54,645 bases of DNA from a virus (Duplodnaviria; Caudoviricetes). The notes beneath the pieces were generated by a model. That model did no database searches, had not been told where the DNA came from, and worked only from the letters and a program-made list of their open reading frames with translations. Every line of letters begins with the position of its first letter. The stretch's first letter is position 1. Location: positions 1 through 54,645 of the IMG/VR virus record IMGVR_UViG_3300048833_000212; one strand, given 5' to 3'. The translations under genes were made by a program, and so were the position numbers. Shown here piece after piece: positions 7,541 through 24,675 of this stretch.

Positions 7541-7785
7541 ATGAGCAGCTGGTCCTGCCCTTCGCGGTGGCCGACCTCTTCCGCATCTCGCATCGACCGG
7601 GCGATGTCTTCGTGCTGACGCTGCAGGGACAGTTCAGCTGGCGAGAAGTGGAGGCGCTGAAGGCGATGTGGAAGGCTTCGCCACTGAACGATGCGCCGCT
7701 CATCATCCTCCAGGAGGGGATGAAACTGGAATCAATTCGGCGGGTGCGCGACGATGACCTGCCTGGAGAGAGTGACTGGACATGA
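7537..7785 (+). CDS. hypothetical protein
   Basis: ATGA overlaps at both ends. Confidence 0.65.
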   Translation: MNEQLVLPFAVADLFRISHRPGDVFVLTLQGQFSWREVEALKAMWKASPLNDAPLIILQEGMKLESIRRVRDDDLPGESDWT

Positions 7786-8318
7786 AGCGCACGCTGGTCT
7801 TCGACACAGAGACGACATCTCTGCTCCCCATCTCCATCGCCCATGAGGATGCGCACCCTCGCATCATCGAGTTCTATGGCGCCATCGTGGATGAGCGCGG
7901 GGCGATCCTCCGTGAGCTGGAGTTCCTGGCGCACCCAGGCGCTCCCATCTCGGATGAGATCAGGAAGATCACCGGCATCAATGATGAGATGGTGGCTGGC
8001 CTTCCGCCCTTCGCTGCCCACATCGATGAGGTGGACAGCCTCCTGTGCGCTGCTGACTCGGTCGTGGCGCACAACCTGTCCTATGACTTCTCCGTGCTGA
8101 GTGTGGAGTTCGCACGCGAAGGTCGGAAGCCTTCGTGGCCGCTCATCCGCTTCTGCACAGTGGAGCAGACGATCCACCTGAAGGGCTTCCGCCTCTCGCT
8201 GGCGAACCTCCATGAATACCTCTTCGGTGAAGCCTTCACCGGAGCGCATCGGGCGAAGCGTGATGTCACGGCGCTCATCCGATGCTTCAACAAGCTGCGT
8301 GATGAGGACATGCTATGA
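7782..8318 (+). CDS. dnaQ: DEDDh 3'-5' exonuclease (DNA pol III epsilon-like)
   Basis: VFDTETT, VAHNLSYD, AHRAKRDV Exo I-III motifs. Confidence 0.93.
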   Translation: MKRTLVFDTETTSLLPISIAHEDAHPRIIEFYGAIVDERGAILRELEFLAHPGAPISDEIRKITGINDEMVAGLPPFAAHIDEVDSLLCAADSVVAHNLSYDFSVLSVEFAREGRKPSWPLIRFCTVEQTIHLKGFRLSLANLHEYLFGEAFTGAHRAKRDVTALIRCFNKLRDEDML

Positions 8319-8810: not shown

Positions 8811-9037
8811 GCGGTCAGAGCCGAGACGCAGCAGAGCGATCTGCGCATGTCCCTGGTAAGGATGCGCGCCGGTTCACTCCATGCTGCGTCTGTGGACGCG
8901 ACGTGAATATCAACAGCCAAGGAAAGGACACCTGCTCTTATGCTGCACGCGTCGGGCCACCGCTCCTTCAGGTGTGCTCCGAAGCCTGCGCCTCCCAGCC
9001 TCCATTCTTGCGTCATCATGACGCAAGCAAACAGTGA
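8807..9037 (+). CDS. small Cys-rich protein (CxxC...CSxxC)
   Basis: AAGGAG RBS; CCVC and CSEAC motifs. Confidence 0.6.
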   Translation: MSGQSRDAAERSAHVPGKDARRFTPCCVCGRDVNINSQGKDTCSYAARVGPPLLQVCSEACASQPPFLRHHDASKQ

Positions 9038-9047
9038 GAGAAGAACG

Positions 9048-9305
9048 ATGAGCAACGACGAAGACATCATGGGCCAGTATGGCGAGGATCGCATCACGGG
9101 CTTCCGTGGGCGCATCACAGGCATTGTGCGCTACATCAGCGGCTGCACCCAGGTGCTGCTGACTCCGAAGGTCGGCACCGATGGGAAGATGCCGGAAGGC
9201 CAGTTCATCGACATCCAGCGCATCAAGGTCGATGAGACGGTGGTGCGCATCATGCTCGACAACGCGCCCACGCCCGGCTTCGATCAGCTGCCGAAGGCGC
9301 GCTGA
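9048..9305 (+). CDS. conserved small phage protein
   Basis: DRITGFRGRITG...YISGC.Q.LLTP motif. Confidence 0.75.
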   Translation: MSNDEDIMGQYGEDRITGFRGRITGIVRYISGCTQVLLTPKVGTDGKMPEGQFIDIQRIKVDETVVRIMLDNAPTPGFDQLPKAR

Positions 9306-10414
9306 TGTCTGACCTCCGCACCAAGAAGCCATGGGTGTCGCCTCGGCTGCGCACTGGCTATTCCTTCCGGACGGCAGCGGGGATGCTGCCTGAAATCTTC
9401 ACGCGCTTGAAGGAGATTGGGGCGGAGGTCGCGCCAATCACAGACACAGCATCGACCTTCGGCTATGCAAAATGGGCGAAGGGAGCGAAGGATGCCGGGC
9501 TGCGGCCGATCTTCGGCGTGGAACTCTCCGTCACCCCTGCACCGAATGCGAAGAAGCCGGTGAGCAGCGCATGGACGTTCCTCGCCCACGACAGCATCCA
9601 GCCAATCAACAGGCTGGTGAACCTCGCCACATCGCAGTTCCGCTATGAGCCGCTGCTCACCTATGAGCAGGCAATGACAGTGGAGGGAGTGACGAAGATC
9701 GCAGGGCACGCCGCGCTGCTCAGCGAGATGTCGCCAGCACCCGACCTCTTCATGGGCCTTTCGCCTTCGTCGCCACGCGGTCAGGTTGTGGCAGCGATGA
9801 AGGCAGGCTTCCGTCTCATCGCCATCGGTGACAACCGCTTCCCGGCGCCGGGGGATTTGGCGCTGTATGAACTCGCTGCCGGGCGGAACTCCGGCACGCA
9901 GACTTATCCCCAGCACATCCTCAGCGAGGAAGAGTGGCGCGAGGCGATGGCCATGCTGCGGCTCACGGATGATGTGCTGGACGGCGCGCTGGTGGAGGCG
10001 AGCATCGCGCTGGAGAGGTCCACTGCGTCTCTCCGGAAGGCGACGATGGTGAAGCCTGCCCGACCGAAGACGTTGCGCGAGATGGCGGAGGATGGAGCGA
10101 GGCGCCGGGGGATAGACCTCGCTGACCCGGTCTATGCAGCGCGGCTGGAAAGGGAACTCTCCATCATCGAAGCGAAGCGGCTGGAGGATTACTTTTTCCT
10201 GATGGCCGACATCATGCAGTTCAGCCGGGCGCACATGCTGTGTGGACCGGCGCGCGGCTCCGCTGCCGGCTCGCTTCTCTCGTTCCTGCTCGACATCACG
10301 ACCATCGACCCCATCCCTGGTGGCCTACTGTTCGAGCGTTTCCTGGACGTGACGCGTGGTGGCTGGTTCTTCAAGACGGATTGGCTCAAGAATGTGATGG
10401 AGACGGAATCATGA
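9305..10414 (+). CDS. dnaE: DNA polymerase III alpha, N-terminal part (PHP domain + first palm segment)
   Basis: RTGYSF, PIFGVEL, ARLERELSII...YF, GPARGSAAGSL...ITTIDPI..GLLFERFLD. Confidence 0.92.
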   Translation: MSDLRTKKPWVSPRLRTGYSFRTAAGMLPEIFTRLKEIGAEVAPITDTASTFGYAKWAKGAKDAGLRPIFGVELSVTPAPNAKKPVSSAWTFLAHDSIQPINRLVNLATSQFRYEPLLTYEQAMTVEGVTKIAGHAALLSEMSPAPDLFMGLSPSSPRGQVVAAMKAGFRLIAIGDNRFPAPGDLALYELAAGRNSGTQTYPQHILSEEEWREAMAMLRLTDDVLDGALVEASIALERSTASLRKATMVKPARPKTLREMAEDGARRRGIDLADPVYAARLERELSIIEAKRLEDYFFLMADIMQFSRAHMLCGPARGSAAGSLLSFLLDITTIDPIPGGLLFERFLDVTRGGWFFKTDWLKNVMETES

Positions 10415-10593
10415 AGGTGAAGGAGTGCCGGACCTGCATCCATCGTCGCGAGGGGATGCTGGCTGTGGACCCATACGAGTGCCGCCGCTATCCTCCAGCA
10501 GTTGTCACATGGGATCATACTCGCAACCAGACGGTATGGCCGAAGGTCAAGCCAAACGACTGGTGCGGCGAATGGAAGGAAGACAAGTCATGA
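10411..10593 (+). CDS. small Cys-rich phage protein
   Basis: CRTC...CRRYPP...WPKV...DWCGEW. Confidence 0.75.
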   Translation: MKVKECRTCIHRREGMLAVDPYECRRYPPAVVTWDHTRNQTVWPKVKPNDWCGEWKEDKS

Positions 10594-10811
10594 GCGAGAC
10601 AAAGGCCCATCTACAGAATGTGATGAAGGCACTGGAAGACATCATCCCAGGCTGCGCCATCGTCCTGCTGGTTGCACCCTTCAATGCGCCGGAAGGAGCG
10701 AGGGTGAACTACATCTCCAACGGGAAGCGCGAGACGATGCTGGTGCTGCTGAAGGAGTTTGTCGCACGCGCCGAAGGTCGCGCCCACGACGCTCCGGAGA
10801 GGAAGCAATGA
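10590..10811 (+). CDS. hypothetical protein
   Basis: IVLLVAPF...RVNYISNGKR motif; ATGA overlap. Confidence 0.75.
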   Translation: MSETKAHLQNVMKALEDIIPGCAIVLLVAPFNAPEGARVNYISNGKRETMLVLLKEFVARAEGRAHDAPERKQ

Positions 10812-11125
10812 GCGAGACGAAGAAAAGGCGACAGGTCTTCTGCCGCGTCAAGCACACGAAGGCAGGGACGGACATTGCCCCATGCGATGCACTCTCATCA
10901 GTCCTGATTTATTCGTATGGCGGCGCAGGCGCTAGGCTCGCCACAATGTTCCCATTCACAGATGGCATCCCGCAAGAGGGAAGGAACAAGCGCCTTGTAA
11001 TTGCGCCGACGAAGAAGCAAGGCAAAGGAGTGGTGGCGAACTTCTGCCCGTATTGTGGCGAGCCTCTGACGGAGGGTGGTCGCGGTTTCGTTGCAGAGCA
11101 GGCGAAGCGAAGGTGCAAGGCATGA
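10808..11125 (+). CDS. hypothetical protein with FCPYCG Zn-knuckle
   Basis: ATGA overlaps at both ends. Confidence 0.7.
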   Translation: MSETKKRRQVFCRVKHTKAGTDIAPCDALSSVLIYSYGGAGARLATMFPFTDGIPQEGRNKRLVIAPTKKQGKGVVANFCPYCGEPLTEGGRGFVAEQAKRRCKA

Positions 11126-13200
11126 ACCCCATCGACGCGATCCGCGCCGCACTGATCCCCTCGCGCGTTCAGCAGGTGGGCCAGCAGGCGATTGACGATG
11201 AGATACACGCGCTCATCGCTGCCTTCGACTTCACGAAGTGGATGGTGGGGAGGCTCGATGCCGGAGCGCGCCTGTCCTCCGCTCATGGCTCTTCGCTGCT
11301 CTACTGCGTGGGCCTGGCCGACAATCCCCCGGCGCCGGGGGAGAAGAAGCATATGTGGTTTGACACGACGCTGCCGGACATCGACGTGGACCTGCAGGAC
11401 GATCTTCGCCACCTGACCTTCGCCCACATCGAAGCGACCTATGGGAAGGAGCGGGTGGCGCGCCTCGGAACGGTCGGCACCTTCAAGGCGCGCAGCGCGC
11501 TCCAGGAGGTCGGCATGGCACTCAAAATTCCGAAGTGGGAAACAGATGCTGTGGCTGACCAGATGATCAAGCGATCCTCCGGTGACGCTCGCGCGCAGCT
11601 GACGATCATCGACACGCTGGAGAATATGCCAGCTGGGAAGGACATGCTGAGGGACCATCCCGAAGCGATCATCGTGACGCGCATCGAAGGCCACCCGAAG
11701 AACGCAGGCCAACACGCGGCAGGCGTCGTCATCTCCAATGATGCCATTGATGAGATTGTCGCGGTGGATGCTCGCACAGGTGCTGCTATGTGCGACAAGG
11801 ATGATGCGGAGGGAGCGTATGGCCTCCTGAAGGCGGACATCCTCGGCCTCACGCAGCTGAGTGTCTTCGCGGAGACGCTGGAGCGTGCCGGCCTCCCGCG
11901 CGACTATCTGGACCACGTGCCGTATGACGACAAACTCGCCTTCGTTGTCATCAATGAGCGACGCTACAGCGGTGTGTTCCAGTTTGAGGGAGGCGCGCTG
12001 CAGAGCGTCGCACGCGCTGTGCACATCGACTCATTCAATGACTTCGTCGCGATGACGGCGCTGGCGCGTCCAGGGCCGCTCGCCAGTGGCTCCACCAACG
12101 AGTGGATCAACCGGCGCACAGGGAAGGATCGCGTCACCTATCCGCACGAGATGCTGCAGCCCTACATGGAAGAGACGCTGGGCGTCATCATCTACCAGGA
12201 GCAAATCCTCACCATCGGTCGCGCCGTTGGCGACCTCGACTGGCCTGAGTTGACTGCTCTTCGCAAGGCGATGAGCAAGAGCCTCGGCAAGGAATACTTC
12301 GACAGGTTCGGCAATCCATGGAAGAGCGCCGCGATACGGAAGGGGATGCCGACGCAGGTGGCGGAAGACGTGTGGACTGCGATGTGCGCATATGGATCGT
12401 ATGGCTTCAACAAGTCGCATGCCTACTCGTATGGACTCATCAGCTACTGGTGCGCTCACCTGAAGGCGCGCTATCCGCTGGAGTTCCTGGCGTCCACTCT
12501 CTCGCACACGAGCGACCCAGCGCAGCAGGTGGAACTCCTGCGCGACCTCCTGGCCGAAGGTTATGACTACATCCCCATTGATCCGTCTGTCTCCACCCAC
12601 CGCTGGGAGGTTGCGGAGAGGGAGGGGAAGAAGGTGGTGGTTGGACCTTTGACGGGTGTGCGTGGTATCGGCAGTGTGGCCGTCCAGAAAATCCTGAGCG
12701 CACGCGGCGCCGGGGAGCCGATGCCTGCGCGCTATGCGAAGCTGCTGGAGGCTCCGAAGACTGACATTGACTCGCTGTTCCCGATACGGGATGCGATCCG
12801 GCGCTGCACTCCGGACCTCCGTGAGAAGAACATCCACACGCCTCCCACGATGATCAGCGTGCTGGAGCACATGCCCGACAACAGCGAGGTTCTCATCATT
12901 GGCGTCCTGCTGAAGATCAACCAGCGTGACGAGAATGAGGAAATCAAGATCGCACGGCGCGGTGGGAAGCGCGTGACGGATGGCTTCCTGCTCTCGCTGA
13001 ATTTGAACATCAAGGATGACACCGGCCAGTTCTTCGCGAAGGTTGGCCGCTTCGATTTCGATGTGCTGGGGAAGCGCATCCTGGACCATGGCCGCGCAGG
13101 GAAGGCCATCTGGGCATTGAAGGGAAGGCTCTTCAAGCGCGGCTCCTTCTCAATGCTGACAGTGCGCAACGCGCGCCTCATCGGTGACCTCGATGAGTAG
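11122..13200 (+). CDS. dnaE: DNA polymerase III alpha, C-terminal part (catalytic palm, fingers, HhH, OB)
   Basis: LPDIDVD, GQHAAGVVI, LLKADILGL, GVFQFE, ALARPGPL, IIYQEQ, YGFNKSHA. Confidence 0.95.
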   Translation: MNPIDAIRAALIPSRVQQVGQQAIDDEIHALIAAFDFTKWMVGRLDAGARLSSAHGSSLLYCVGLADNPPAPGEKKHMWFDTTLPDIDVDLQDDLRHLTFAHIEATYGKERVARLGTVGTFKARSALQEVGMALKIPKWETDAVADQMIKRSSGDARAQLTIIDTLENMPAGKDMLRDHPEAIIVTRIEGHPKNAGQHAAGVVISNDAIDEIVAVDARTGAAMCDKDDAEGAYGLLKADILGLTQLSVFAETLERAGLPRDYLDHVPYDDKLAFVVINERRYSGVFQFEGGALQSVARAVHIDSFNDFVAMTALARPGPLASGSTNEWINRRTGKDRVTYPHEMLQPYMEETLGVIIYQEQILTIGRAVGDLDWPELTALRKAMSKSLGKEYFDRFGNPWKSAAIRKGMPTQVAEDVWTAMCAYGSYGFNKSHAYSYGLISYWCAHLKARYPLEFLASTLSHTSDPAQQVELLRDLLAEGYDYIPIDPSVSTHRWEVAEREGKKVVVGPLTGVRGIGSVAVQKILSARGAGEPMPARYAKLLEAPKTDIDSLFPIRDAIRRCTPDLREKNIHTPPTMISVLEHMPDNSEVLIIGVLLKINQRDENEEIKIARRGGKRVTDGFLLSLNLNIKDDTGQFFAKVGRFDFDVLGKRILDHGRAGKAIWALKGRLFKRGSFSMLTVRNARLIGDLDE

Positions 13201-13202
13201 CC

Positions 13203-13231
13203 TTCCCTTCGCGTCTGAGGAAGCGGAGGAT
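13203..13231 (+). promoter_or_regulatory. putative promoter TTCCCT-N17-GAGGAT
   Basis: One of five intergenic copies of TT(C/T)CCT with an identical 17-nt spacer. Confidence 0.5.
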
Positions 13232-13320
13232 AGGAGGCTGTGGGCGGGCAATCCTGCCAAGATGGCCGCTCATCACCATATCCCCTGCGACCAAACGCCC
13301 ACAGCACCTGGAACGAGAGA

Positions 13321-13671
13321 ATGACCGAACATCGATGTGCCGGAAGAGTTTTCACGCCCGGCTCCTTCCGTGACTCCGCCTGCTCCCGGAAGGGGAAGCA
13401 CTTCCAGAAGGAACGCTGGTGGTGCGGCACTCACCTCCCATCGAAGGAGGAAGAGCGAAGGGCAGAGCGGAACCGAATTGGCGATCTGAAGAGCGCCGTG
13501 ATGCGCGCAGGCTGGGACCGGGAGAAGATCGCAGGCGACCTCATCAAGGCCGCAATCGCCGCAACGAAGCAGCGTGGCTCGTGGACGCGCGTGGAAGAAC
13601 TCTCGGCGGAACTCGTGGCAGCAGAAGAGAAGATTGCCGCAGCGCAACGCAAGCTGGAGGAAGAACGGTGA
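13321..13671 (+). CDS. hypothetical protein (C...C...CxxH, coiled-coil tail)
   Basis: GGAACGAGAGA precedes the ATG. Confidence 0.7.
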   Translation: MTEHRCAGRVFTPGSFRDSACSRKGKHFQKERWWCGTHLPSKEEERRAERNRIGDLKSAVMRAGWDREKIAGDLIKAAIAATKQRGSWTRVEELSAELVAAEEKIAAAQRKLEEER

Positions 13672-13889: not shown

Positions 13890-14119
13890 GCATCATCGAA
13901 GCCAAGCAGATCGCAGACGTTGACGACATCAACAAGGATGATGTTCCAGAAATCGCAGACATCGAGATGCTGCGCGAGATGGTCTATGCGGCGCAGGCTC
14001 ACGAGCGTGAAGGGACATTCGTCGCCATCACTGTCGATGCGCTGCGTGACCTTCTCTCCCGTCAGCTGTCGTCGCCCACTGCTGCGAAGAACTTCGTGCG
14101 CGTCCAGAGGTCGCAATGA
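13886..14119 (+). CDS. hypothetical protein
   Basis: ATGA overlaps; AAGGAG RBS. Confidence 0.65.
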   Translation: MSIIEAKQIADVDDINKDDVPEIADIEMLREMVYAAQAHEREGTFVAITVDALRDLLSRQLSSPTAAKNFVRVQRSQ

Positions 14120-15324
14120 TCAGCAACGAAGAGTTCCTGCAAACCGTATTCGGTGACGGGTGGCTCGCTGCACATCTCGCGTCCTTCGTGGATGATCCCA
14201 CGAGCGAGACGATGGACAGGAAGAAGTGGGGTGGCGGCGCCGCGAAGGAGAAGCTGCTGTGGGCCATCCCGACACGCAACAACTACTTCACAGTGTCCCT
14301 CTTCGCGAGGGACGATGAAGGGATCGCACGGCGCCGCAAGGCGCTGTTCCTGTCTATGCATCTCGTGGTGGTGGATGACGTGGACGAAGGGAAGGTGAAG
14401 AGCGAGACAGCGCGCCGTCTCCTGGGGGAGCCTTCCTATCGTCTCGAAACCTCCCCCGGCAACGAGCAGTGGGGATACCTCTTCGATGAGCCGCTGCGCG
14501 ACCGCTTCGCGGGTGAACTGCTCGTGGAAGCGATGGTGGCCCAGGGACTGACGACCACCGGCACCGATCCCGGCATGAAGGGTGTCACGCGATACGTGCG
14601 CCTCCCGGTTGGCACGAACATGAAGGCCAAGTATGGCGCCACCGGCTTCCGGACAGTGCTCCACGAATGGGCTCCGGAGCGCCGCTACAGCCCTGCGATC
14701 CTCGCCCAGGCCTTCGGCCTGCCCGACCTCGCGGAAGCCGCCCGCGTGGCCTGCAGGCGCGCGGAGATGGAACGGGAGGGGCTGGAGGGGAAGGGAGAGG
14801 ATGCGCTGCTGGCCGCACTCACCTTCCTCGGAAAGGTGAAGGACACCCGGCGCCGGGGAGATGCGGTGGACATCACCTGCCCGTTCATCGACACGCACAC
14901 GGGACGGGTGGACACAGGGACTGCCTACATGATCGGTGGCGGCGGCATCTCCTGCCATCATGGCCACTGCGTCGGGAGGTCGCGTGGAGAGTATGTTCAG
15001 AAGATCAAAGATGAACTCAGCGGGATTGTCGATGAGCGAGCAGCGGAGGCAGCTGCTGTAATTTACAGCATCAGCGCGCTGGCAGACCTCCGCCGCTCCC
15101 TTCGGCTCACTGCCTTCGGCCTGATGCGGCGCGGGTTGAAGGCGGAGGATCGCATCCGCGATATGGCCAACGAAGAGATTGATGATGCGAGTGTGGCAGA
15201 GGAAGAGATGTGGGCAGCCATCGCATGGGCGCGGGAGAAGGTGCAGGAGATTGAGACGAAGGAGAAGGTGGTGGAGGCTCCGATAAAGACAGTTAAATTC
15301 GATGTGCCGGAGGAATGGCTGTGA
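14116..15324 (+). CDS. RepB-type (AEP) DNA primase with Zn-binding domain
   Basis: VVVDDV, LETSPGNEQWGY, RYVRLPVGTN.K, CPF...H...CHHGHC. Confidence 0.85.
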   Translation: MISNEEFLQTVFGDGWLAAHLASFVDDPTSETMDRKKWGGGAAKEKLLWAIPTRNNYFTVSLFARDDEGIARRRKALFLSMHLVVVDDVDEGKVKSETARRLLGEPSYRLETSPGNEQWGYLFDEPLRDRFAGELLVEAMVAQGLTTTGTDPGMKGVTRYVRLPVGTNMKAKYGATGFRTVLHEWAPERRYSPAILAQAFGLPDLAEAARVACRRAEMEREGLEGKGEDALLAALTFLGKVKDTRRRGDAVDITCPFIDTHTGRVDTGTAYMIGGGGISCHHGHCVGRSRGEYVQKIKDELSGIVDERAAEAAAVIYSISALADLRRSLRLTAFGLMRRGLKAEDRIRDMANEEIDDASVAEEEMWAAIAWAREKVQEIETKEKVVEAPIKTVKFDVPEEWL

Positions 15325-17972
15325 GTATCGTTCATTGGTTGGCGAGCCGGGACGGGAGCGAAAGCCGCCCCACATCGCTGCTGAGCGGGATGGGCATTCG
15401 CGTCTCCCCGCTGTATGAGAGCGAGTATCACCGCAACTGGCTGAAGGGCCAAGGCGCAGAGGCGCGTGGCATCCTGACGGCCATCGTGCGGGAGGAAGCG
15501 AAGAATGGCACGTGGAAGGACACGAAGGCGATCCACTTCAATGTGGACGGGACGCCCAGCCACATCGTCTCCGCCAGCGGCGCGGTGGCCAACATCGAAG
15601 TGCTGCCGACTGAACGCAATGCCTTCCTCGCTGCCTTCGCTGCGCATCCCTTCGGGGAGAAGGTCGGTGCGGAGGTTCCGGACAGGCTGAGCAATAAGCA
15701 GATTGCCCAGCTGATGGACCTTCCGCCCTTTGCACGGGAGCATGGCGAACTCTTCTTCTTCCGCAATGAGAATGGAGCAGTCACCTTCGTTCACCAGCGG
15801 ATCGAAGTGAACAGTGCGAAGGTCTATGTGGCCTGGCACCTTCGGGAGGTCAGCGGCTCCCTCACGTGGTTCGCCAGTGAACCGGAAGGTGCGCTGCCAA
15901 TCTACGGTGCCCACCTGCTCCCCGGCGCCGCAGGGAAGGTGATCTACATCCATGAGAGCGCGCGTGCGGCGGAGGGAGCCGCTAGGATCGCGCGGGAGGC
16001 TGTTCTAGCGGCGGAGGCTCCGGAGGGACCGGAAGAGAAGCGGAGCCGCCTAGGCGCCCATCCCTGGGGCGAGGAACTAGCGGGCGCAGTCCATGTCGGG
16101 TGGCTCAGCGGCGGGATGAACGTGGAGCGGACCTCCTGGGCCGGCATCAACTCAGCCGCGCCATCGGATGTCGTCATCGTCGCGGACAATGATGAGTCTG
16201 GCCTCGCAAGCATCCCCAAGATCGCGAAGAGCCTGTTCATGACGACCAGTGCGGTGAAGTTCAACTCTTCCTTCCCGGTTGGCTTCGACATGGGTGACCC
16301 ATATCCCGACAGCGCGCGACGGTGGAAGAACGGGAAGCTGAAGCCGCTCCACCTTCAGCGACTGGAACTCATGAAGGTCTTCGCGACATGGGCGACGGAA
16401 GCCTACACGGTGCCGACCGCGAACGGCACAAAGGTGAAGTATCGCGTGCGACGCTCCTTCGCTCGCGCGGTGGGCTATGTGAAGAACATCGACCGCTTCG
16501 TGGTGCGGTCTGCGCCGACACCTGCTCTTGGCTCTTTGACCTTTGACAAAGCGTTCCGCTCCTTCTCCGATGTCGCACAGCTGAGCAATGTCGTTGTGGA
16601 GGATGCTGAGACGATCTTCGACAGCCTGGCATACGTGCCCGGCTCACCGACCGGCGCGATGATGCGTGACTCCATGATGCTCCTGAACACGTATCGGCCA
16701 CCGCTGATCCCCCGGCGCCGGGGAGATGTGAGGCTGTTCGATGAGTTCATGCGCTACCTCGTGCCAGGCGAGGAAGACCGCCTCAACCTCCTGCGGATCA
16801 TCGCGACGATTGTGGCGCATCCGGAGCGCCGCATTCGCTACTCTGTGCTGCTCATCTCCACGCAGGAAGGTGTGGGGAAGAACACGCTCACGGATGCGAT
16901 CCTCCAGCCGCTCGTGGGCCCGCACAACGTCTCGGTCGTGGGCGAGAGCGGCATCACCGGCTCATTCAACGGGTGGGCAGCCAATCGTCGCGTCATCATC
17001 GTCCCGGAAATCTATGAGGGTCACTCGTTTACCACAGCCAACAAGCTGAAGTCAATGGTGACGGATGACCGGATCATGGTGAATGAGAAGAACCAGCCCG
17101 CATATGAGGTGGACAACAACATCACCTTCTTCGCCTGCTCCAACTCGCTGCAGGCTCTGAAGATTGCAGAGGCTGACCGCCGCTGGTTCCTTCCGCAGCT
17201 GTCGGAGGTCGCGTGGCCGCGCGAGCGGTTCGCTGAACTCCACGATGCTCTCTCGCATGGCGACCTTCTGCCAGCGATCATGGACTGGGCACACGAGTAT
17301 GGTGACTATGTCCAGGATGGAGCCACGGCGCCGCGAAGCACCTTCAAGGATGAGTTCATTGAAGGCTCGATCAGCGGCGTGCGCAACGAAACGGATGCGC
17401 TCACCGCGCTCATGAAGAGCCTGCGTGCGCCTCCGGACGGATACAAGAAGCGGCTGCTCACCATGATCAGCAAGCTGCCGTCTGACGGGAAGATGAGTGT
17501 GGAAGGGAGGATGGCCAACAATGAGGCCAAGATGTTCCTCCGTGACGTCATCGATGGGCCGCGTGCGGCGTCGCTCGCGATCCCTGTCCCGCTCGCAGTG
17601 ACGAGTAAGGAGGCGCTGGCTCATGCGACGAAGGCAGTGACCAATCGTGAGCGCATCTTCGACCGTGAGCTGGATGTGCGGAAGAGGATGCTGAAGGAGG
17701 GGCTGGTGGACGGTGGCCGGGTGATGATCGGCAACCGCATGGGGAGGATCGTCTGCAACCGCGCGTGCGAAGACCTCGTGCGGCAGTTCGTGCGCTGGTA
17801 TGAAGAGAAGATGGACGGTGGTGGGCAGGTTCTTCAGGACCATATCCTGGCCAATGCGCTCTATCGCGCGGCGCTGGTTTTCCCCTCTGAACTTCTTCCA
17901 GAAGAGATGGGCGCGGATGGTGGCGGCATTGTTCGCGAGACGATGCACGACGACTGGGAGAGGGATGAATGA
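15315..17972 (+). CDS. Toprim-like + DUF5906/SF3-type primase-helicase
   Basis: IYIHES, VIVADNDESG (Toprim); STQEGVGKN Walker A, IIVPEI, LKSMVTD...VNEKNQP, DRRW. Confidence 0.85.
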   Translation: MAVSIVHWLASRDGSESRPTSLLSGMGIRVSPLYESEYHRNWLKGQGAEARGILTAIVREEAKNGTWKDTKAIHFNVDGTPSHIVSASGAVANIEVLPTERNAFLAAFAAHPFGEKVGAEVPDRLSNKQIAQLMDLPPFAREHGELFFFRNENGAVTFVHQRIEVNSAKVYVAWHLREVSGSLTWFASEPEGALPIYGAHLLPGAAGKVIYIHESARAAEGAARIAREAVLAAEAPEGPEEKRSRLGAHPWGEELAGAVHVGWLSGGMNVERTSWAGINSAAPSDVVIVADNDESGLASIPKIAKSLFMTTSAVKFNSSFPVGFDMGDPYPDSARRWKNGKLKPLHLQRLELMKVFATWATEAYTVPTANGTKVKYRVRRSFARAVGYVKNIDRFVVRSAPTPALGSLTFDKAFRSFSDVAQLSNVVVEDAETIFDSLAYVPGSPTGAMMRDSMMLLNTYRPPLIPRRRGDVRLFDEFMRYLVPGEEDRLNLLRIIATIVAHPERRIRYSVLLISTQEGVGKNTLTDAILQPLVGPHNVSVVGESGITGSFNGWAANRRVIIVPEIYEGHSFTTANKLKSMVTDDRIMVNEKNQPAYEVDNNITFFACSNSLQALKIAEADRRWFLPQLSEVAWPRERFAELHDALSHGDLLPAIMDWAHEYGDYVQDGATAPRSTFKDEFIEGSISGVRNETDALTALMKSLRAPPDGYKKRLLTMISKLPSDGKMSVEGRMANNEAKMFLRDVIDGPRAASLAIPVPLAVTSKEALAHATKAVTNRERIFDRELDVRKRMLKEGLVDGGRVMIGNRMGRIVCNRACEDLVRQFVRWYEEKMDGGGQVLQDHILANALYRAALVFPSELLPEEMGADGGGIVRETMHDDWERDE

Positions 17973-21751: not shown

Positions 21752-23701
21752 ATGCCGATGCCCGGAGCAAGTGATCCATCCAAGATGGGCTTCGTGCGCG
21801 CCACGCAGTCCAAGAGTGATCCGTGGACGTTCATCGCGTCCACCGAGACAGTGGACCGCTACGGTGACGTCATCCTCGCCAGCGGCTGGGACCTCCGCTG
21901 GTTCAAGAAGAACCCCATTGCCCTTTGGGCACACAATCACTCGCAGCCCATCGGCACGTGGGAAGATGTCCGCGTGGAGGAAGGCTCGCTGGTGGCGCGC
22001 CTGGAGATGGTGAAGGCTGGCGTGTCCTCCATCGCAGATATGGTGCGAGCCTTCGTTGAGCAGCGCGTCCTGCGCGCCGTCTCCGTGGGCTTCATCCCCA
22101 AGGCTGCGGAGCCGCGCCTGGACGCGAAGGGCAACCCGACTGGTGGCTATACGTTCACCAAATCGGAGTTGCTGGAAATTTCTGTCGTCTCCGTCCCTGC
22201 CAATCAGGAAGCATTGGCAGTCGGCAAGTCGGCAGGGATCGCTGAGAACGAAATCCACCATCTGCTCTCCAAGGTCGATGAGCCCTGGCGGAACTCGAAC
22301 ACCAGCATCATCCGACCGAAGAACTTCAACCCCACCATCAAGGGAACACCGAAGATGCCGACCCTCGCGGAACGGATCGCCCAGCGCGAAGCCGAAGTGG
22401 TCACGCTGCGTGACCAGGTGACGGAACTCTCCGCTGCTGATGCCGATGAGTCCAACGAGACCAGCGCGGCCGCGCTGACCGAAGCGACCCGCAAGCTGGA
22501 CGAAGCCACCGCCTCGCTGGAGCGGCTGAAGTCGGCGCAGGCGACGCTCGCGCGTTCCGCCGCTCCCGCGCAGCCGGTGGCCGGCGTCACCGCTTCCGGC
22601 GCCGCGACCGTCCCTGCGCAGCCGAAGGCGAAGGGCAAGCCGGGCGAGGCGCTGTTCAAGGCAGGCTTCGCGACCTTCCGCGCCATCGTGGAGCGCCGCA
22701 GCGTCGATGACGTGATCAAGGGCATGTATGGCGATGCGCCGGATGTCGCGATCATGGCCAATGCGAAGGCGGCCACCGCTGCCGCGCGCACGGATGCGCC
22801 GGGCTGGGCGCAGGAACTCGTGCAGGATCAGGTGGTGGGCTTCGCCACGCTGCTCGTGCCGATGTCCATCTGGGCCGCGTTCCCCGGCCTGTCGCTGACC
22901 TTCGGTGGCGAAGGCAAGATCATCCTGCCGGGTCGCGACTACACGAAGAACGTGAGCGGCGGCTTCGTGGGCGAAGGCGGCGCCATCCCGGTGAAGGCGG
23001 GTGCGACCCGCTCCGTCACCCTGACGCCCGACAAGGTGGCCGTGATCATCGCGCTGACTCGCGAACTCGCGCGCCGCTCCAGCCCGGCTGCGCTGCCGCT
23101 CTTCCAGCAGATGGTGCTGGAGGATACGTCCATGATGCTGGACACGCTGTTCCTCGACAACAGCGCGGCAGTGCCGAATGTCCGGCCTGCCGGCCTGCAG
23201 ACGCTCGCCACCGGCATCAACACGCGCGCCTCCAGCGGCGCCACGCTGCAGAACATCATCGCGGACATGAAGGCGATGGTCGCGCAGATGGGCACCAACC
23301 GCATGGGCCGCACGCCCGTGTGGGTGATGTCGGAAGCGAACCGGCTGGCGCTGGCGATGCTGACCAACGACCTCGGCCAGTTCATGTTCAAGGATGAAAT
23401 CGGCCAGGGCCGCATGTTCGGCTATCCCATCCTGTCCTCGCTGAACGTGCCGGCTGGCGTCGTGTTCCTCATCGACGCCAATGAGATCGCGAAGGCGGCG
23501 GAAGGTGCGCCGGCATTCGATGTCTCGGAGCAGGCGACGATCCACATGGACAGCGCGCCGAATGCCGAACTCGGCGGCGTCACCACCGGCCTCGTGTCGC
23601 TGTGGCAGACCGACCAGATGGGCCTGCGGATGATCTGGGACCTCACCTGGGGTGCGCGCCAGACCGGCGCTGTGCAGACGCTCACCGGCGTGGCCTGGTG
23701 A
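21752..23701 (+). CDS. prohead protease-major capsid protein fusion (HK97 fold)
   Basis: ASTETVDRYGD, LWAHN, VSVGF, LLEISVVSVPAN; then coiled-coil and capsid motifs (FVGEGGAIP, SLWQTDQMGLR). Confidence 0.93.
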   Translation: MPMPGASDPSKMGFVRATQSKSDPWTFIASTETVDRYGDVILASGWDLRWFKKNPIALWAHNHSQPIGTWEDVRVEEGSLVARLEMVKAGVSSIADMVRAFVEQRVLRAVSVGFIPKAAEPRLDAKGNPTGGYTFTKSELLEISVVSVPANQEALAVGKSAGIAENEIHHLLSKVDEPWRNSNTSIIRPKNFNPTIKGTPKMPTLAERIAQREAEVVTLRDQVTELSAADADESNETSAAALTEATRKLDEATASLERLKSAQATLARSAAPAQPVAGVTASGAATVPAQPKAKGKPGEALFKAGFATFRAIVERRSVDDVIKGMYGDAPDVAIMANAKAATAAARTDAPGWAQELVQDQVVGFATLLVPMSIWAAFPGLSLTFGGEGKIILPGRDYTKNVSGGFVGEGGAIPVKAGATRSVTLTPDKVAVIIALTRELARRSSPAALPLFQQMVLEDTSMMLDTLFLDNSAAVPNVRPAGLQTLATGINTRASSGATLQNIIADMKAMVAQMGTNRMGRTPVWVMSEANRLALAMLTNDLGQFMFKDEIGQGRMFGYPILSSLNVPAGVVFLIDANEIAKAAEGAPAFDVSEQATIHMDSAPNAELGGVTTGLVSLWQTDQMGLRMIWDLTWGARQTGAVQTLTGVAW

Positions 23702-23707
23702 TCAATC

Positions 23708-23735
23708 GGCTCCCGGCAGACCTCTGCCGGGAGCC
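23708..23735 (+). terminator. 12-bp hairpin after the capsid gene (terminator or mRNA stabiliser)
   Basis: GGCTCCCGGCAG-ACCT-CTGCCGGGAGCC; no U tract. Confidence 0.55.
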
Positions 23736-23767
23736 ACCCGCCTCCAGAACCTCGCGAGGATTGTGCC

Positions 23768-24487
23768 ATGACCGTCGCTCCCTTCCTTCCCCGCCACGGT
23801 GTGGCATACATCCCCCGCCCGCATCTCGGCATTGTCGCGACCGCTGCCGGCGCAGGCGCAGTCGATGTGAAGGTGGAGAACATCACTGCTGGTCTTTCGG
23901 ACAGCACTGTGACCCTTCGCGTCTTCGACCCGGATGGCGTTCTGGTGCATGATGTGAACACCGTCGCAGCCATCGCATCGACGGAAGTGGAGTTCAGCGG
24001 AATCACCATCGCGAAGGCAGGGCCGCACCGCGTGGAGGCGCTGACCAGCCTCGGCCAGATCGGCCGCATGCTGGTGGACAGCGCGGCTCCCGCTGCGGTG
24101 ACATTCGTCAGCATCAGCCCGACCACGGTGGACGCAGGCGTCCACCAGTTTGTCATCACGGGCACCAACATCACTCCGGACTACCTCGTGTGGCCGACGA
24201 TGGTGCCAGGCCCGACCGATGCTGTCTATACGCCAACCAGCATCACCTTCACCCTGGACTACACCGGTCAGGCAGGGCAGAATGATTCCATCAACATGCG
24301 GAAGGATAGCGCAAATGTGCATCTCTTCCAGATGCCTGTGACTGCTGCTGCGCTGAAGGCGCCTTCCGGCACCGACACGACCGCAGGCGCAGGCGGCACC
24401 GACACGACCGCAGGTGCGGCTCCCGCTCCCCCTCCAGCGGCTGCTCCCCTCTCCGCCCGCACCACCCGCAAGGTCGCTCCGAAGTGA
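23768..24487 (+). CDS. beta-rich (Ig-like) probable virion decoration protein
   Basis: SISPTT...FVITGTN IPT/TIG-like motif; repeated GTDTTAGA tail. Confidence 0.6.
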   Translation: MTVAPFLPRHGVAYIPRPHLGIVATAAGAGAVDVKVENITAGLSDSTVTLRVFDPDGVLVHDVNTVAAIASTEVEFSGITIAKAGPHRVEALTSLGQIGRMLVDSAAPAAVTFVSISPTTVDAGVHQFVITGTNITPDYLVWPTMVPGPTDAVYTPTSITFTLDYTGQAGQNDSINMRKDSANVHLFQMPVTAAALKAPSGTDTTAGAGGTDTTAGAAPAPPPAAAPLSARTTRKVAPK

Positions 24488-24675
24488 AGGGCAGGCGGAG
24501 GTTCCTGGACCCTGCCGAGCAGGAAGCCCAGGAAATCTTCGCCAAGGCGAAGGCGGAGCGCGAGGCGCGCGCCGCACGTCTGGCAAAGATGCGTGACCAG
24601 CATTCGGGTGCAGATCGCGCAGAAGAGCGCGGCACCTATCTGGACAGGGAGATGAGGAATGTCCGCCGCCCGTGA
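24484..24675 (+). CDS. small hypothetical protein before the portal
   Basis: GTGA overlap; ends TYLDREM. Confidence 0.6.

Follow-up and report, generated by a model that had tools for sequence, protein, structure and literature searches.

How can a phage keep its replicative DNA polymerase when the gene encoding it is cut inside the catalytic palm? This question is raised by IMG/VR virus record IMGVR_UViG_3300048833_000212 (Duplodnaviria; Caudoviricetes), a complete record of 54,645 bp with direct terminal repeats, the whole of which was analyzed and is called the window below. Its dnaE is carried as 2 plus-strand genes, an N-half of 369 amino acids (aa; gene 1, 9305..10414) and a C-half of 692 aa (gene 2, 11122..13200). 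We consider it probable that this is an intein-less fractured dnaE derived from a homing-type cassette and that it yields a non-covalent, 2-subunit polymerase with a composite active site. The replicative family C polymerase would then be made as 2 polypeptides, the N-half supplying the PHP domain and the palm segment with the RGS/GS nucleotide-binding motif and the C-half supplying the catalytic aspartates (PDIDVD), thumb, fingers, and OB fold. The break would have been made by an in-frame insert placed exactly between R351 and the xxL-PDID strand and composed of a GG[W/Y/F] linker with a short tail and a stop codon, a variable middle, a new start codon, and a helical leader of about 80 aa. 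Such an insert would be mobile in the manner of a homing-endonuclease cassette, with a tail and a leader of its own that most likely hold the halves together as docking pieces.

Position of the break

The window polymerase is a family C enzyme of the DnaE type, with the PHP, palm, and fingers domains and the overall fold of Pol III alpha all matched. Gene 1 encodes the PHP domain (PF02811 on residues 14-112; E 3.8e-8, 34.3 bits against a cut-off of 26.4) and a canonical palm subdomain, segment S (10115..10357, residues 271-351), to which the gene 2 leader was aligned both by hhalign and within the window, followed by the linker R351-G352-G353-W354 and a 15-aa tail. It runs up to LLFERFLDVTR, and the 18 extra residues after R351 (GGWFFKTDWLKNVMETES) occupy, with the stop codon, positions 10358..10414. 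Gene 2 starts at the ATG at 11122 inside a longer open reading frame (ORF; 11053..13200), and the relatives P0104, P0118, and P0119 begin at the same place. It encodes a leader, S' (11122..11373), of 84 aa up to the P of PDIDVD, followed by the catalytic palm, thumb, fingers (PF17657, E 5.1e-33), and C-terminal OB fold; 81 residues precede TTLPDIDVD. The AlphaFold2 (AF2) model of the C-half had a mean predicted local distance difference test (pLDDT) score of 85.8 and matched structure 2hnh with Z 26.6 and a root-mean-square deviation (rmsd) of 3.4 over 454 aligned residues, and 5lew, 7pu7, and 4jom with Z 25-26.

The split lies inside the catalytic palm. In the 260-position palm model PF07733, gene 1 residues 256-351 match positions 2-98 and gene 2 residues 82-242 match positions 99-260; the domain is complete only when both genes are counted together, and because the halves end and begin at adjacent model positions (98/99), the break is exact to the residue. 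Among the best 80 relatives in IMG/VR, 78 were evaluable at the break site, of which 75 were unsplit and 3 split; in 75 of the 78, gene 1 residue 351 and the first 1-4 core residues of gene 2 share a frame and lie 0-9 nt apart. The canonical spacing is thus regained when R (10357) is joined to T (11365), since these residues abut in the unsplit relatives. The division within the palm and the restored spacing had both been proposed in a first-pass annotation made from the letters of the window alone, as had a WF dipeptide in both extensions (gene 1 tail and gene 2 leader), and all of these were borne out.

The break falls between the segment with the RGS/GS motif and the PDIDVD strand. In Pol III alpha, the former serves in nucleotide binding and the latter provides the catalytic aspartates. 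The motif R317-G318-S319 / G322-S323 was invariant in 21/21 N-halves and D86, D88, and D90 in 54/54 C-parts, and RGS was identified in 0/14 aligned leaders. Given these 3 patterns, both halves seem to be under selection for a joint active site.

Homology of the leader to the palm segment

By profile and model comparison, the gene 2 leader appears to have been copied long ago from the palm segment just before the break and to have diverged since, and the degenerate duplicate first noticed by eye was recovered by profile comparison, colinear BLAST, and fold search. When 6 leaders were compared with 21 N-halves by hhalign, leader residues 16-74 were placed on gene 1 residues 285-340 (Prob 89%, E 2.2e-6). 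With 14 leaders, the score was 37.0 against 15.8 for the reversed control and at most 17.8 in 20 column shuffles, and the distance to the break was equal on both sides of the alignment. Within the window alone, the global protein alignment of leader and S scored 29 (shuffle mean -22.6, sd 10.1), a value reached by 1/1000 shuffles, while no DNA-level similarity between the 2 was identified, the observed score being reached by 112/500 codon shuffles; because the protein echo is significant and the DNA shows none, the copy is likely old.

Further, the BLASTP alignment of gene 2 with P0105, an unsplit relative, continues colinearly across the leader, and with gene 2 residues 1-140 as tblastn query, 385 of 630 cultured-phage records gave a query coverage of 80% or more. 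An AF2 model of the leader, built from an alignment of leaders alone, had 5 helices (pLDDT 84.7). Searched against 48,161 PDB representatives, its top 7 matches were all family C polymerases (PolC, M. tuberculosis DnaE1, and E. coli and Taq Pol III alpha) with Z 6.0-3.9, the next row having Z 3.5; these absolute Z values are modest. The alignments spanned 82-83 residues at rmsd 4.7-5.2 and started at E. coli residue 286. The fold search with the whole C-half left the leader unplaced, most rows beginning at model residues 79-85, and an ESM Atlas search with the leader returned nothing usable (best score 0.85).

Distribution of the split and evidence for mobility

The same breakpoint recurs among homologs. 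The N-half search was limited to proteins of 202-646 aa and for that reason favors halves and fragments; 24 of the 101 other proteins that it listed end in FERFxxxxR-GG[W/Y/F] plus 13-24 residues (108 in one), and they come from contigs of up to 113 kb. On the C side, 131 other listed proteins with the motif included 10 C-halves with a leader of 42-85 aa and 116 unsplit polymerases. A leader profile searched against 1.84 billion representatives gave 18 hits, among them 13 further C-half clusters and 3 repeat proteins, and C-halves with a leader elsewhere come to about 25 in all. More split loci were found through a DNA pattern for the motif; a narrow GGWF pattern in metagenome contigs gave 4 stretches only, 2 of them duplicates of IMG/VR loci, and a related-locus search in IMG/VR with gene 1 alone as query returned no relative. 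A pattern scan of bacterial and archaeal genomes gave at least 120 matches, and among those listed there was no form A split, one form B locus, and some chance hits.

Split alleles were scattered among polymerase cores. In a tree of 132 cores with 16 split rows, well-supported branches forced at least 8 changes of state, and a 43-row IQ-TREE tree with 15 split rows gave at least 9; the 43 rows were picked after the first tree was seen, and L117 was left out as a long branch. For these 43 rows, a single split clade was worse by 906 log-likelihood units in the approximately unbiased (AU) test (p-AU 0.0004). Leaders and cores were also decoupled. P0129 and P0171 have cores that are 89% identical and leaders that are 30% identical, and P0171 and P0177 have leaders 96% and cores 84% identical. 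The split P0177 and the unsplit P0139 share 98-100% identity over core residues 81-420, and the P0177 leader is 20-32% identical to the S segment of P0139; the pair P0129/P0140 behaves alike. After the arginine, all split N-halves read GG[W/Y/F], in contrast to [DTNS]D[LM] in unsplit kin, and comparison of the listed pairs showed that tail types and leader types co-occur. Taken together, the scattered alleles, the decoupling, and the co-occurrence suggest that a single cassette made up of tail, gap, and leader moves between dnaE alleles or is precisely deleted. Such spread would be what a homing-type element does; recombination among alleles gives the same pattern and belongs to the same process.

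Gap content was surveyed in 9 distinct split loci with DNA. The gap of L111 holds an HNH endonuclease gene (Pfam HNH_3 at the cut-off; phrog_1872, E 9.7e-17), and that of the L052 type holds a gene for a 299-aa helix-turn-helix and Vsr/PD-(D/E)xK-like endonuclease (phrog_9019, E 1e-20), of which G002 carries a copy interrupted by a stop. There is nothing in the gaps of L054 and L105, where the 2 halves overlap; L104 has 2 small ORFs, L110 (a short contig) has a phrog_4652 ORF, and the window has 3 small ORFs. In G001, a complete 53-kb genome that stands behind L103 and L115-L117, the halves lie on the same strand in inverted order, with the C-half (~14418-17318) about 6 kb upstream of the N-half (~23338-24525) and a leader of only 41 aa. 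The middle of the window insert consists of 3 small coupled ORFs without a nuclease, so the cassette in the window is probably no longer autonomous.

These data bear on the proposal of the first-pass annotation that a partial duplication was followed by subfunctionalization. The duplicated segment stood; subfunctionalization within the lineage was not supported as put forward, given the scattered alleles, the decoupled leaders, and the endonuclease genes of relatives. On such an account, a tandem partial duplication in an ancestor, complementary decay, and vertical inheritance would suffice, with no mobile element. The leader is indeed a likely copy of segment S, the 4 closest relatives of the window, all of them split, group in a single clade (support 99%), genes like the second gap ORF are ordinary dnaE neighbors in relatives, and the window gap lacks a nuclease gene. 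However, split alleles occupy no fewer than 8-9 separate positions in the core tree, with monophyly rejected, near-identical split and unsplit alleles occur, the residues after the arginine differ between split genes and unsplit kin, and gaps in relatives hold endonuclease genes. We therefore regard subfunctionalization in place as unlikely and as less likely than a mobile cassette.

The GG-aromatic start of the tail is a native linker type and not a new motif, since unsplit family C polymerases read it. The bacterial and archaeal scan listed at least 15 unsplit bacterial genes with R-GG[YFW]-PDID. Unsplit polymerases with native R-GG[Y/F/W/L]-PDIDxD of the RGSAANS...FERFLSEAR type were seen in L149, L166, L167, L169, L171, L177, L179, L201, L216, L224, L225, L231, L232, and L237 (bacterial genomes) and in L106.

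Predicted assembly of the 2 halves

If the gene is fractured without an intein, its products would have to meet as separate chains. Structure prediction of the 2 halves together, a check that had been put forward with the first-pass annotation, supported this: the ESMFold2 complex scored 0.86 against 0.00 for the best of 3 controls, and that mark was attained by 58 of the 80 solved complexes tested and by 2 of the 110 mismatched pairs. Runs agreed in at least 96% of contacts, with partner pLDDT of at least 82. The model places residues 303-307 of the canonical N-half segment on core helix 98-102, their position in the unsplit enzyme, and it brings PHP residues 51-54 and 101-109 to core residues 213-224, again the arrangement that an intact enzyme would have. 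Residues 344-368 of chain 1 (the tail) and 25-57 of chain 2 (leader helices) also belong to the predicted interface. With the N-half segment placed canonically and tail and leader also at the interface, the leader would add contacts and not replace that segment. On these models, the halves most likely assemble non-covalently into one enzyme, and tail and leader most likely act as docking pieces.

A different division of labor would make the C-half, with its S-like leader, a self-sufficient polymerase and the N-half a separate PHP accessory, for example an exonuclease or pyrophosphatase. Two observations fit this proposal: on the C-half, the leader is modeled with confidence (pLDDT 81-92) as a helical, palm-like domain, and in one phage (G001) the halves are unlinked. 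Yet RGS is kept in none of the leaders and in every N-half, the N-half always keeps the full palm segment up to the break, and in the predicted complex the N-half lies against the core helix as it does in the unsplit enzyme. A self-sufficient C-half is, on this evidence, decidedly unlikely.

Returning to a non-covalent enzyme fractured by a homing-type cassette, we note a wider form of it, in which the GG-aromatic tail and the helical leader together make up a reassembly module that is complete in itself and needs no intein. The cassette would then bring 2 docking peptides, one of them (the palm-like leader) domesticated from a subdomain of the target protein, and could split any dnaE allele within its catalytic core at R/xxL-PDID (the slash marking the break) while the enzyme still works. 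We hold this to be possible, at somewhat less than an even chance.

Inteins, RNA-level events, and points that weigh against the cassette

An atypical, unrecognized split intein, with an N part of 18 aa and a C part of 81 aa, could in principle trans-splice the halves covalently. The insert is in frame with host residues all kept, Thr follows the leader in the window phage, and an intein-like tail (a subthreshold match to Intein_splicing, E 8.6e-5) is present in a distant lineage whose break is at the same residue. Against this, the first tail residue was Gly, and not Cys or Ser, in 21/21 N-halves, and the leader is predicted as all-helical (5 helices, pLDDT 85) and not as a HINT beta fold. 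The C junction showed no HN and no conserved Ser, Thr, or Cys, leaders ending TTL, PTT, QDL, PSQ/A, and NSL, and no intein or HINT Pfam match to tail or leader was identified at E<=1. The 2-gene family C polymerase without an intein described in the first-pass annotation is upheld by the Gly at the tail start, the helical leader, and the lack of a conserved nucleophile at the junctions, and we judge covalent splicing to be very improbable.

The distant dnaE lineage (L085, L091, L092, L093, L097, L102, L108, and L109, and L213, a metagenome-assembled genome) is an observation of its own. It is broken at FERFLLPER/GGL and has a beta-rich N-tail of about 75 aa, the source of the subthreshold Pfam match, and a C-leader of about 35 aa ending RGSL/PDIDTD. 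Its tail starts have no Cys or Ser and its leader ends no HN, and the pair looks like a catalytically dead split intein used for docking.

An RNA-level event (a group I or II intron or ribosomal bypass), an assembly artifact, or a pseudogene is hardly credible: exact spacing at the junction is also expected of an intron or bypass, but the gap is fully coding, with 3 ORFs that have their own starts, tail and leader are kept as protein families, the order of the halves is inverted in G001, and independent contigs bridge both junctions. The unrecognized splicing or bypass that had been suggested for the window is thus not supported, for want of a recognizable RNA family and of coding-free room, and in view of the helical leader and the inverted halves. 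An Rfam covariance search of 9000-13500 gave 0 matches at E<=10, in line with the earlier remark that no intron core was obvious, although a divergent intron could be missed by it. With the 5 genes overlapping at ATGA in an unbroken chain, no non-coding space is left for an intron or bypass. Bypass of the T4 gene 60 type involves a short non-coding gap with matched take-off and landing codons. Programmed bypass is unlikely here, the gap being 1007 nt long with 3 self-starting ORFs, unlike such a short non-coding gap. As for misassembly, the contigs of run X1, possibly the sample of origin, together cover 9000-13500 without a single difference, and in a second study, short contigs span 10301-10481 with 3 differences and 11299-11449 with 1; since contigs from 2 studies bridge both junctions, the arrangement is not an assembly artifact.

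Several points weigh against the origin from a mobile cassette and against the docking role of its parts. The case for homology of leader and S is of moderate strength and is built on comparisons of profiles and folds (Prob 77-89%, Z no higher than 6.0); when the leader was compared directly with gene 1 by BLASTP, a different region was aligned (E 0.002) and the echo itself went undetected, and the leader profile matched no unsplit DnaE at E<=1e-3 among the 1.84 billion representatives. The complex was predicted on our own alignments, and its score may reflect likeness, since unsplit Pol III alpha structures are solved; contact between tail and leader is consistent with the modeled interface lists. 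Repeated precise loss or recombination among alleles could also give a patchy distribution. For the clade of the window, vertical descent suffices because its 4 split alleles are monophyletic, and mobility is drawn from relatives and not from this copy, as the window gap holds no endonuclease gene.

Comparison with known split genes and significance

Cyanobacterial split DnaE is encoded by 2 genes that may be unlinked, and the products are joined covalently by trans-splicing through a canonical split intein, the outcome of a single ancient event. The dnaE of the window is likewise in 2 genes, and these are unlinked in relative G001; unlike the cyanobacterial case, its break is at another site and has no intein features.

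A closer comparison is with the fractured genes of Dassa, London, Stoddard & Pietrokovski (2009; PMC2677866), which are phage-like genes, dnaE included, broken by a free-standing and often Vsr-like endonuclease gene with flanking split inteins. In the model given there, the endonuclease is later lost and the halves are later uncoupled, and one intein-less case (SbcD-like) is described with 25 and 9 extra residues at the break. Like those genes, the window dnaE is one conserved gene in 2 neighboring same-strand ORFs. Unlike them, it has no split-intein parts and no endonuclease gene between its halves, where 3 non-nuclease ORFs stand instead, and its break is flanked by a GG-aromatic tail and a putative 80-aa helical copy of a host palm segment. 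Among relatives, the endonuclease feature of the fractured genes is seen in L111, with an HNH gene, and in the L052 type, with a Vsr/PD-(D/E)xK-like gene.

Intein-less genes in pieces are cited in PMC2677866, namely the Aeh1 nrdA gene, split by the mobE endonuclease gene, and the T4-like gp43 (family B polymerase) in 2 parts. There, a free-standing endonuclease gene splits an essential gene, and the products reassemble non-covalently into a working enzyme. The window dnaE resembles these in being an essential enzyme gene split without an intein, with non-covalent reassembly the likely counterpart in the window phage. It differs from them in its family C host gene, a break inside the Pol-beta-like catalytic core, a duplicated domain that appears host-derived, and its scatter among many alleles. 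Within the literature covered, no account of a dnaE split here without an intein came to light, although one of the 3 dnaE loci in PMC2677866 may yet share the site. Within that limit, the site in the catalytic core, the conserved cassette-borne tail with the host-derived leader, and the repeated gain or loss among near-identical alleles appear to be new features.

A Pol-beta-like core cut between the GS loop and the catalytic aspartates and apparently still kept by selection in many phages bears on the folding and assembly of family C polymerases. If the docking pieces do come from a mobile cassette, they would be a natural answer to a homing endonuclease gene that invades an essential gene without an intron or intein, and thus a third way, beside these 2, for a selfish endonuclease gene to live in an essential gene. 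The tail and leader could then serve as a natural split-protein reassembly tag. The near-identical pairs of split and unsplit alleles are a ready test system for homing and its fitness cost. In annotation, such halves are easily called "partial" or "pseudogene" though probably functional. The locus should be of interest to those who work on replisomes, inteins, and homing endonucleases.

Gap genes and genomic neighborhood

The 3 ORFs in the 1007-nt gap are of 60, 73, and 105 aa, and, as had been read from the letters, they are coupled: ATGA stop/start overlaps at 10411, 10590, 10808, and 11122 chain all 5 genes, the 2 halves included. ORF A (10411..10593, plus strand, 60 aa) is Cys-rich, has no family match, and has its ATG overlapping the gene 1 stop. 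ORF B (10590..10811, plus strand, 73 aa) matches phrog_35296, of unknown function. ORF C (10808..11125, plus strand, 105 aa) has a C-terminal zinc-ribbon-like CPYC motif and resembles small prophage proteins, its ESM Atlas matches being unnamed prophage proteins only. Family searches matched no nuclease in the 3, which look like ordinary small replication-module genes in the slot that an endonuclease gene uses in relatives.

The promoter and terminator scan found 0 promoter-like sites in the dnaE region and terminator-like sites on the minus strand only. The replication module around dnaE comprises a DnaQ-like exonuclease gene at 7782-8318 (RNase_T), both dnaE genes, a primase-like gene at 14116-15324 (phrog_4861), and a DUF5906 helicase-primase gene at 15315-17972.

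Homologs of ORF B, with 45-49% identity over 40-43 aa, were identified in L055 (7745-7861), L057 (6818-6934), and L080 (2806-2931), in all of which dnaE is unsplit; in L055 and L057 they lie directly upstream of it. ORFs B and C both start with MSETK, and a 20-nt repeat of 85% identity surrounds their ATGA starts (10585-10604 and 10803-10822), pointing to shuffling of modules or to a duplication on a small scale. The match of contigs from runs X2 and X3 is confined to 46 nt of ORF A (10417-10462), with 5 differences, and since their flanks differ, a sequence like that of ORF A occurs in another genomic context in soil metagenomes.

Inteins were also seen in dnaE genes of this group. The unsplit dnaE of the relative L004 (1170-4826) has an HNH-containing intein at GHPRHY/C...N/SQHAAG (slashes marking its ends). 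Several split C-halves (P0177, P0219, L104, L111, and L117) have an insert of about 230-250 aa in the core, matched by PF14890 in P0177 and P0219, and one dnaE can therefore hold both a cassette and an intein.

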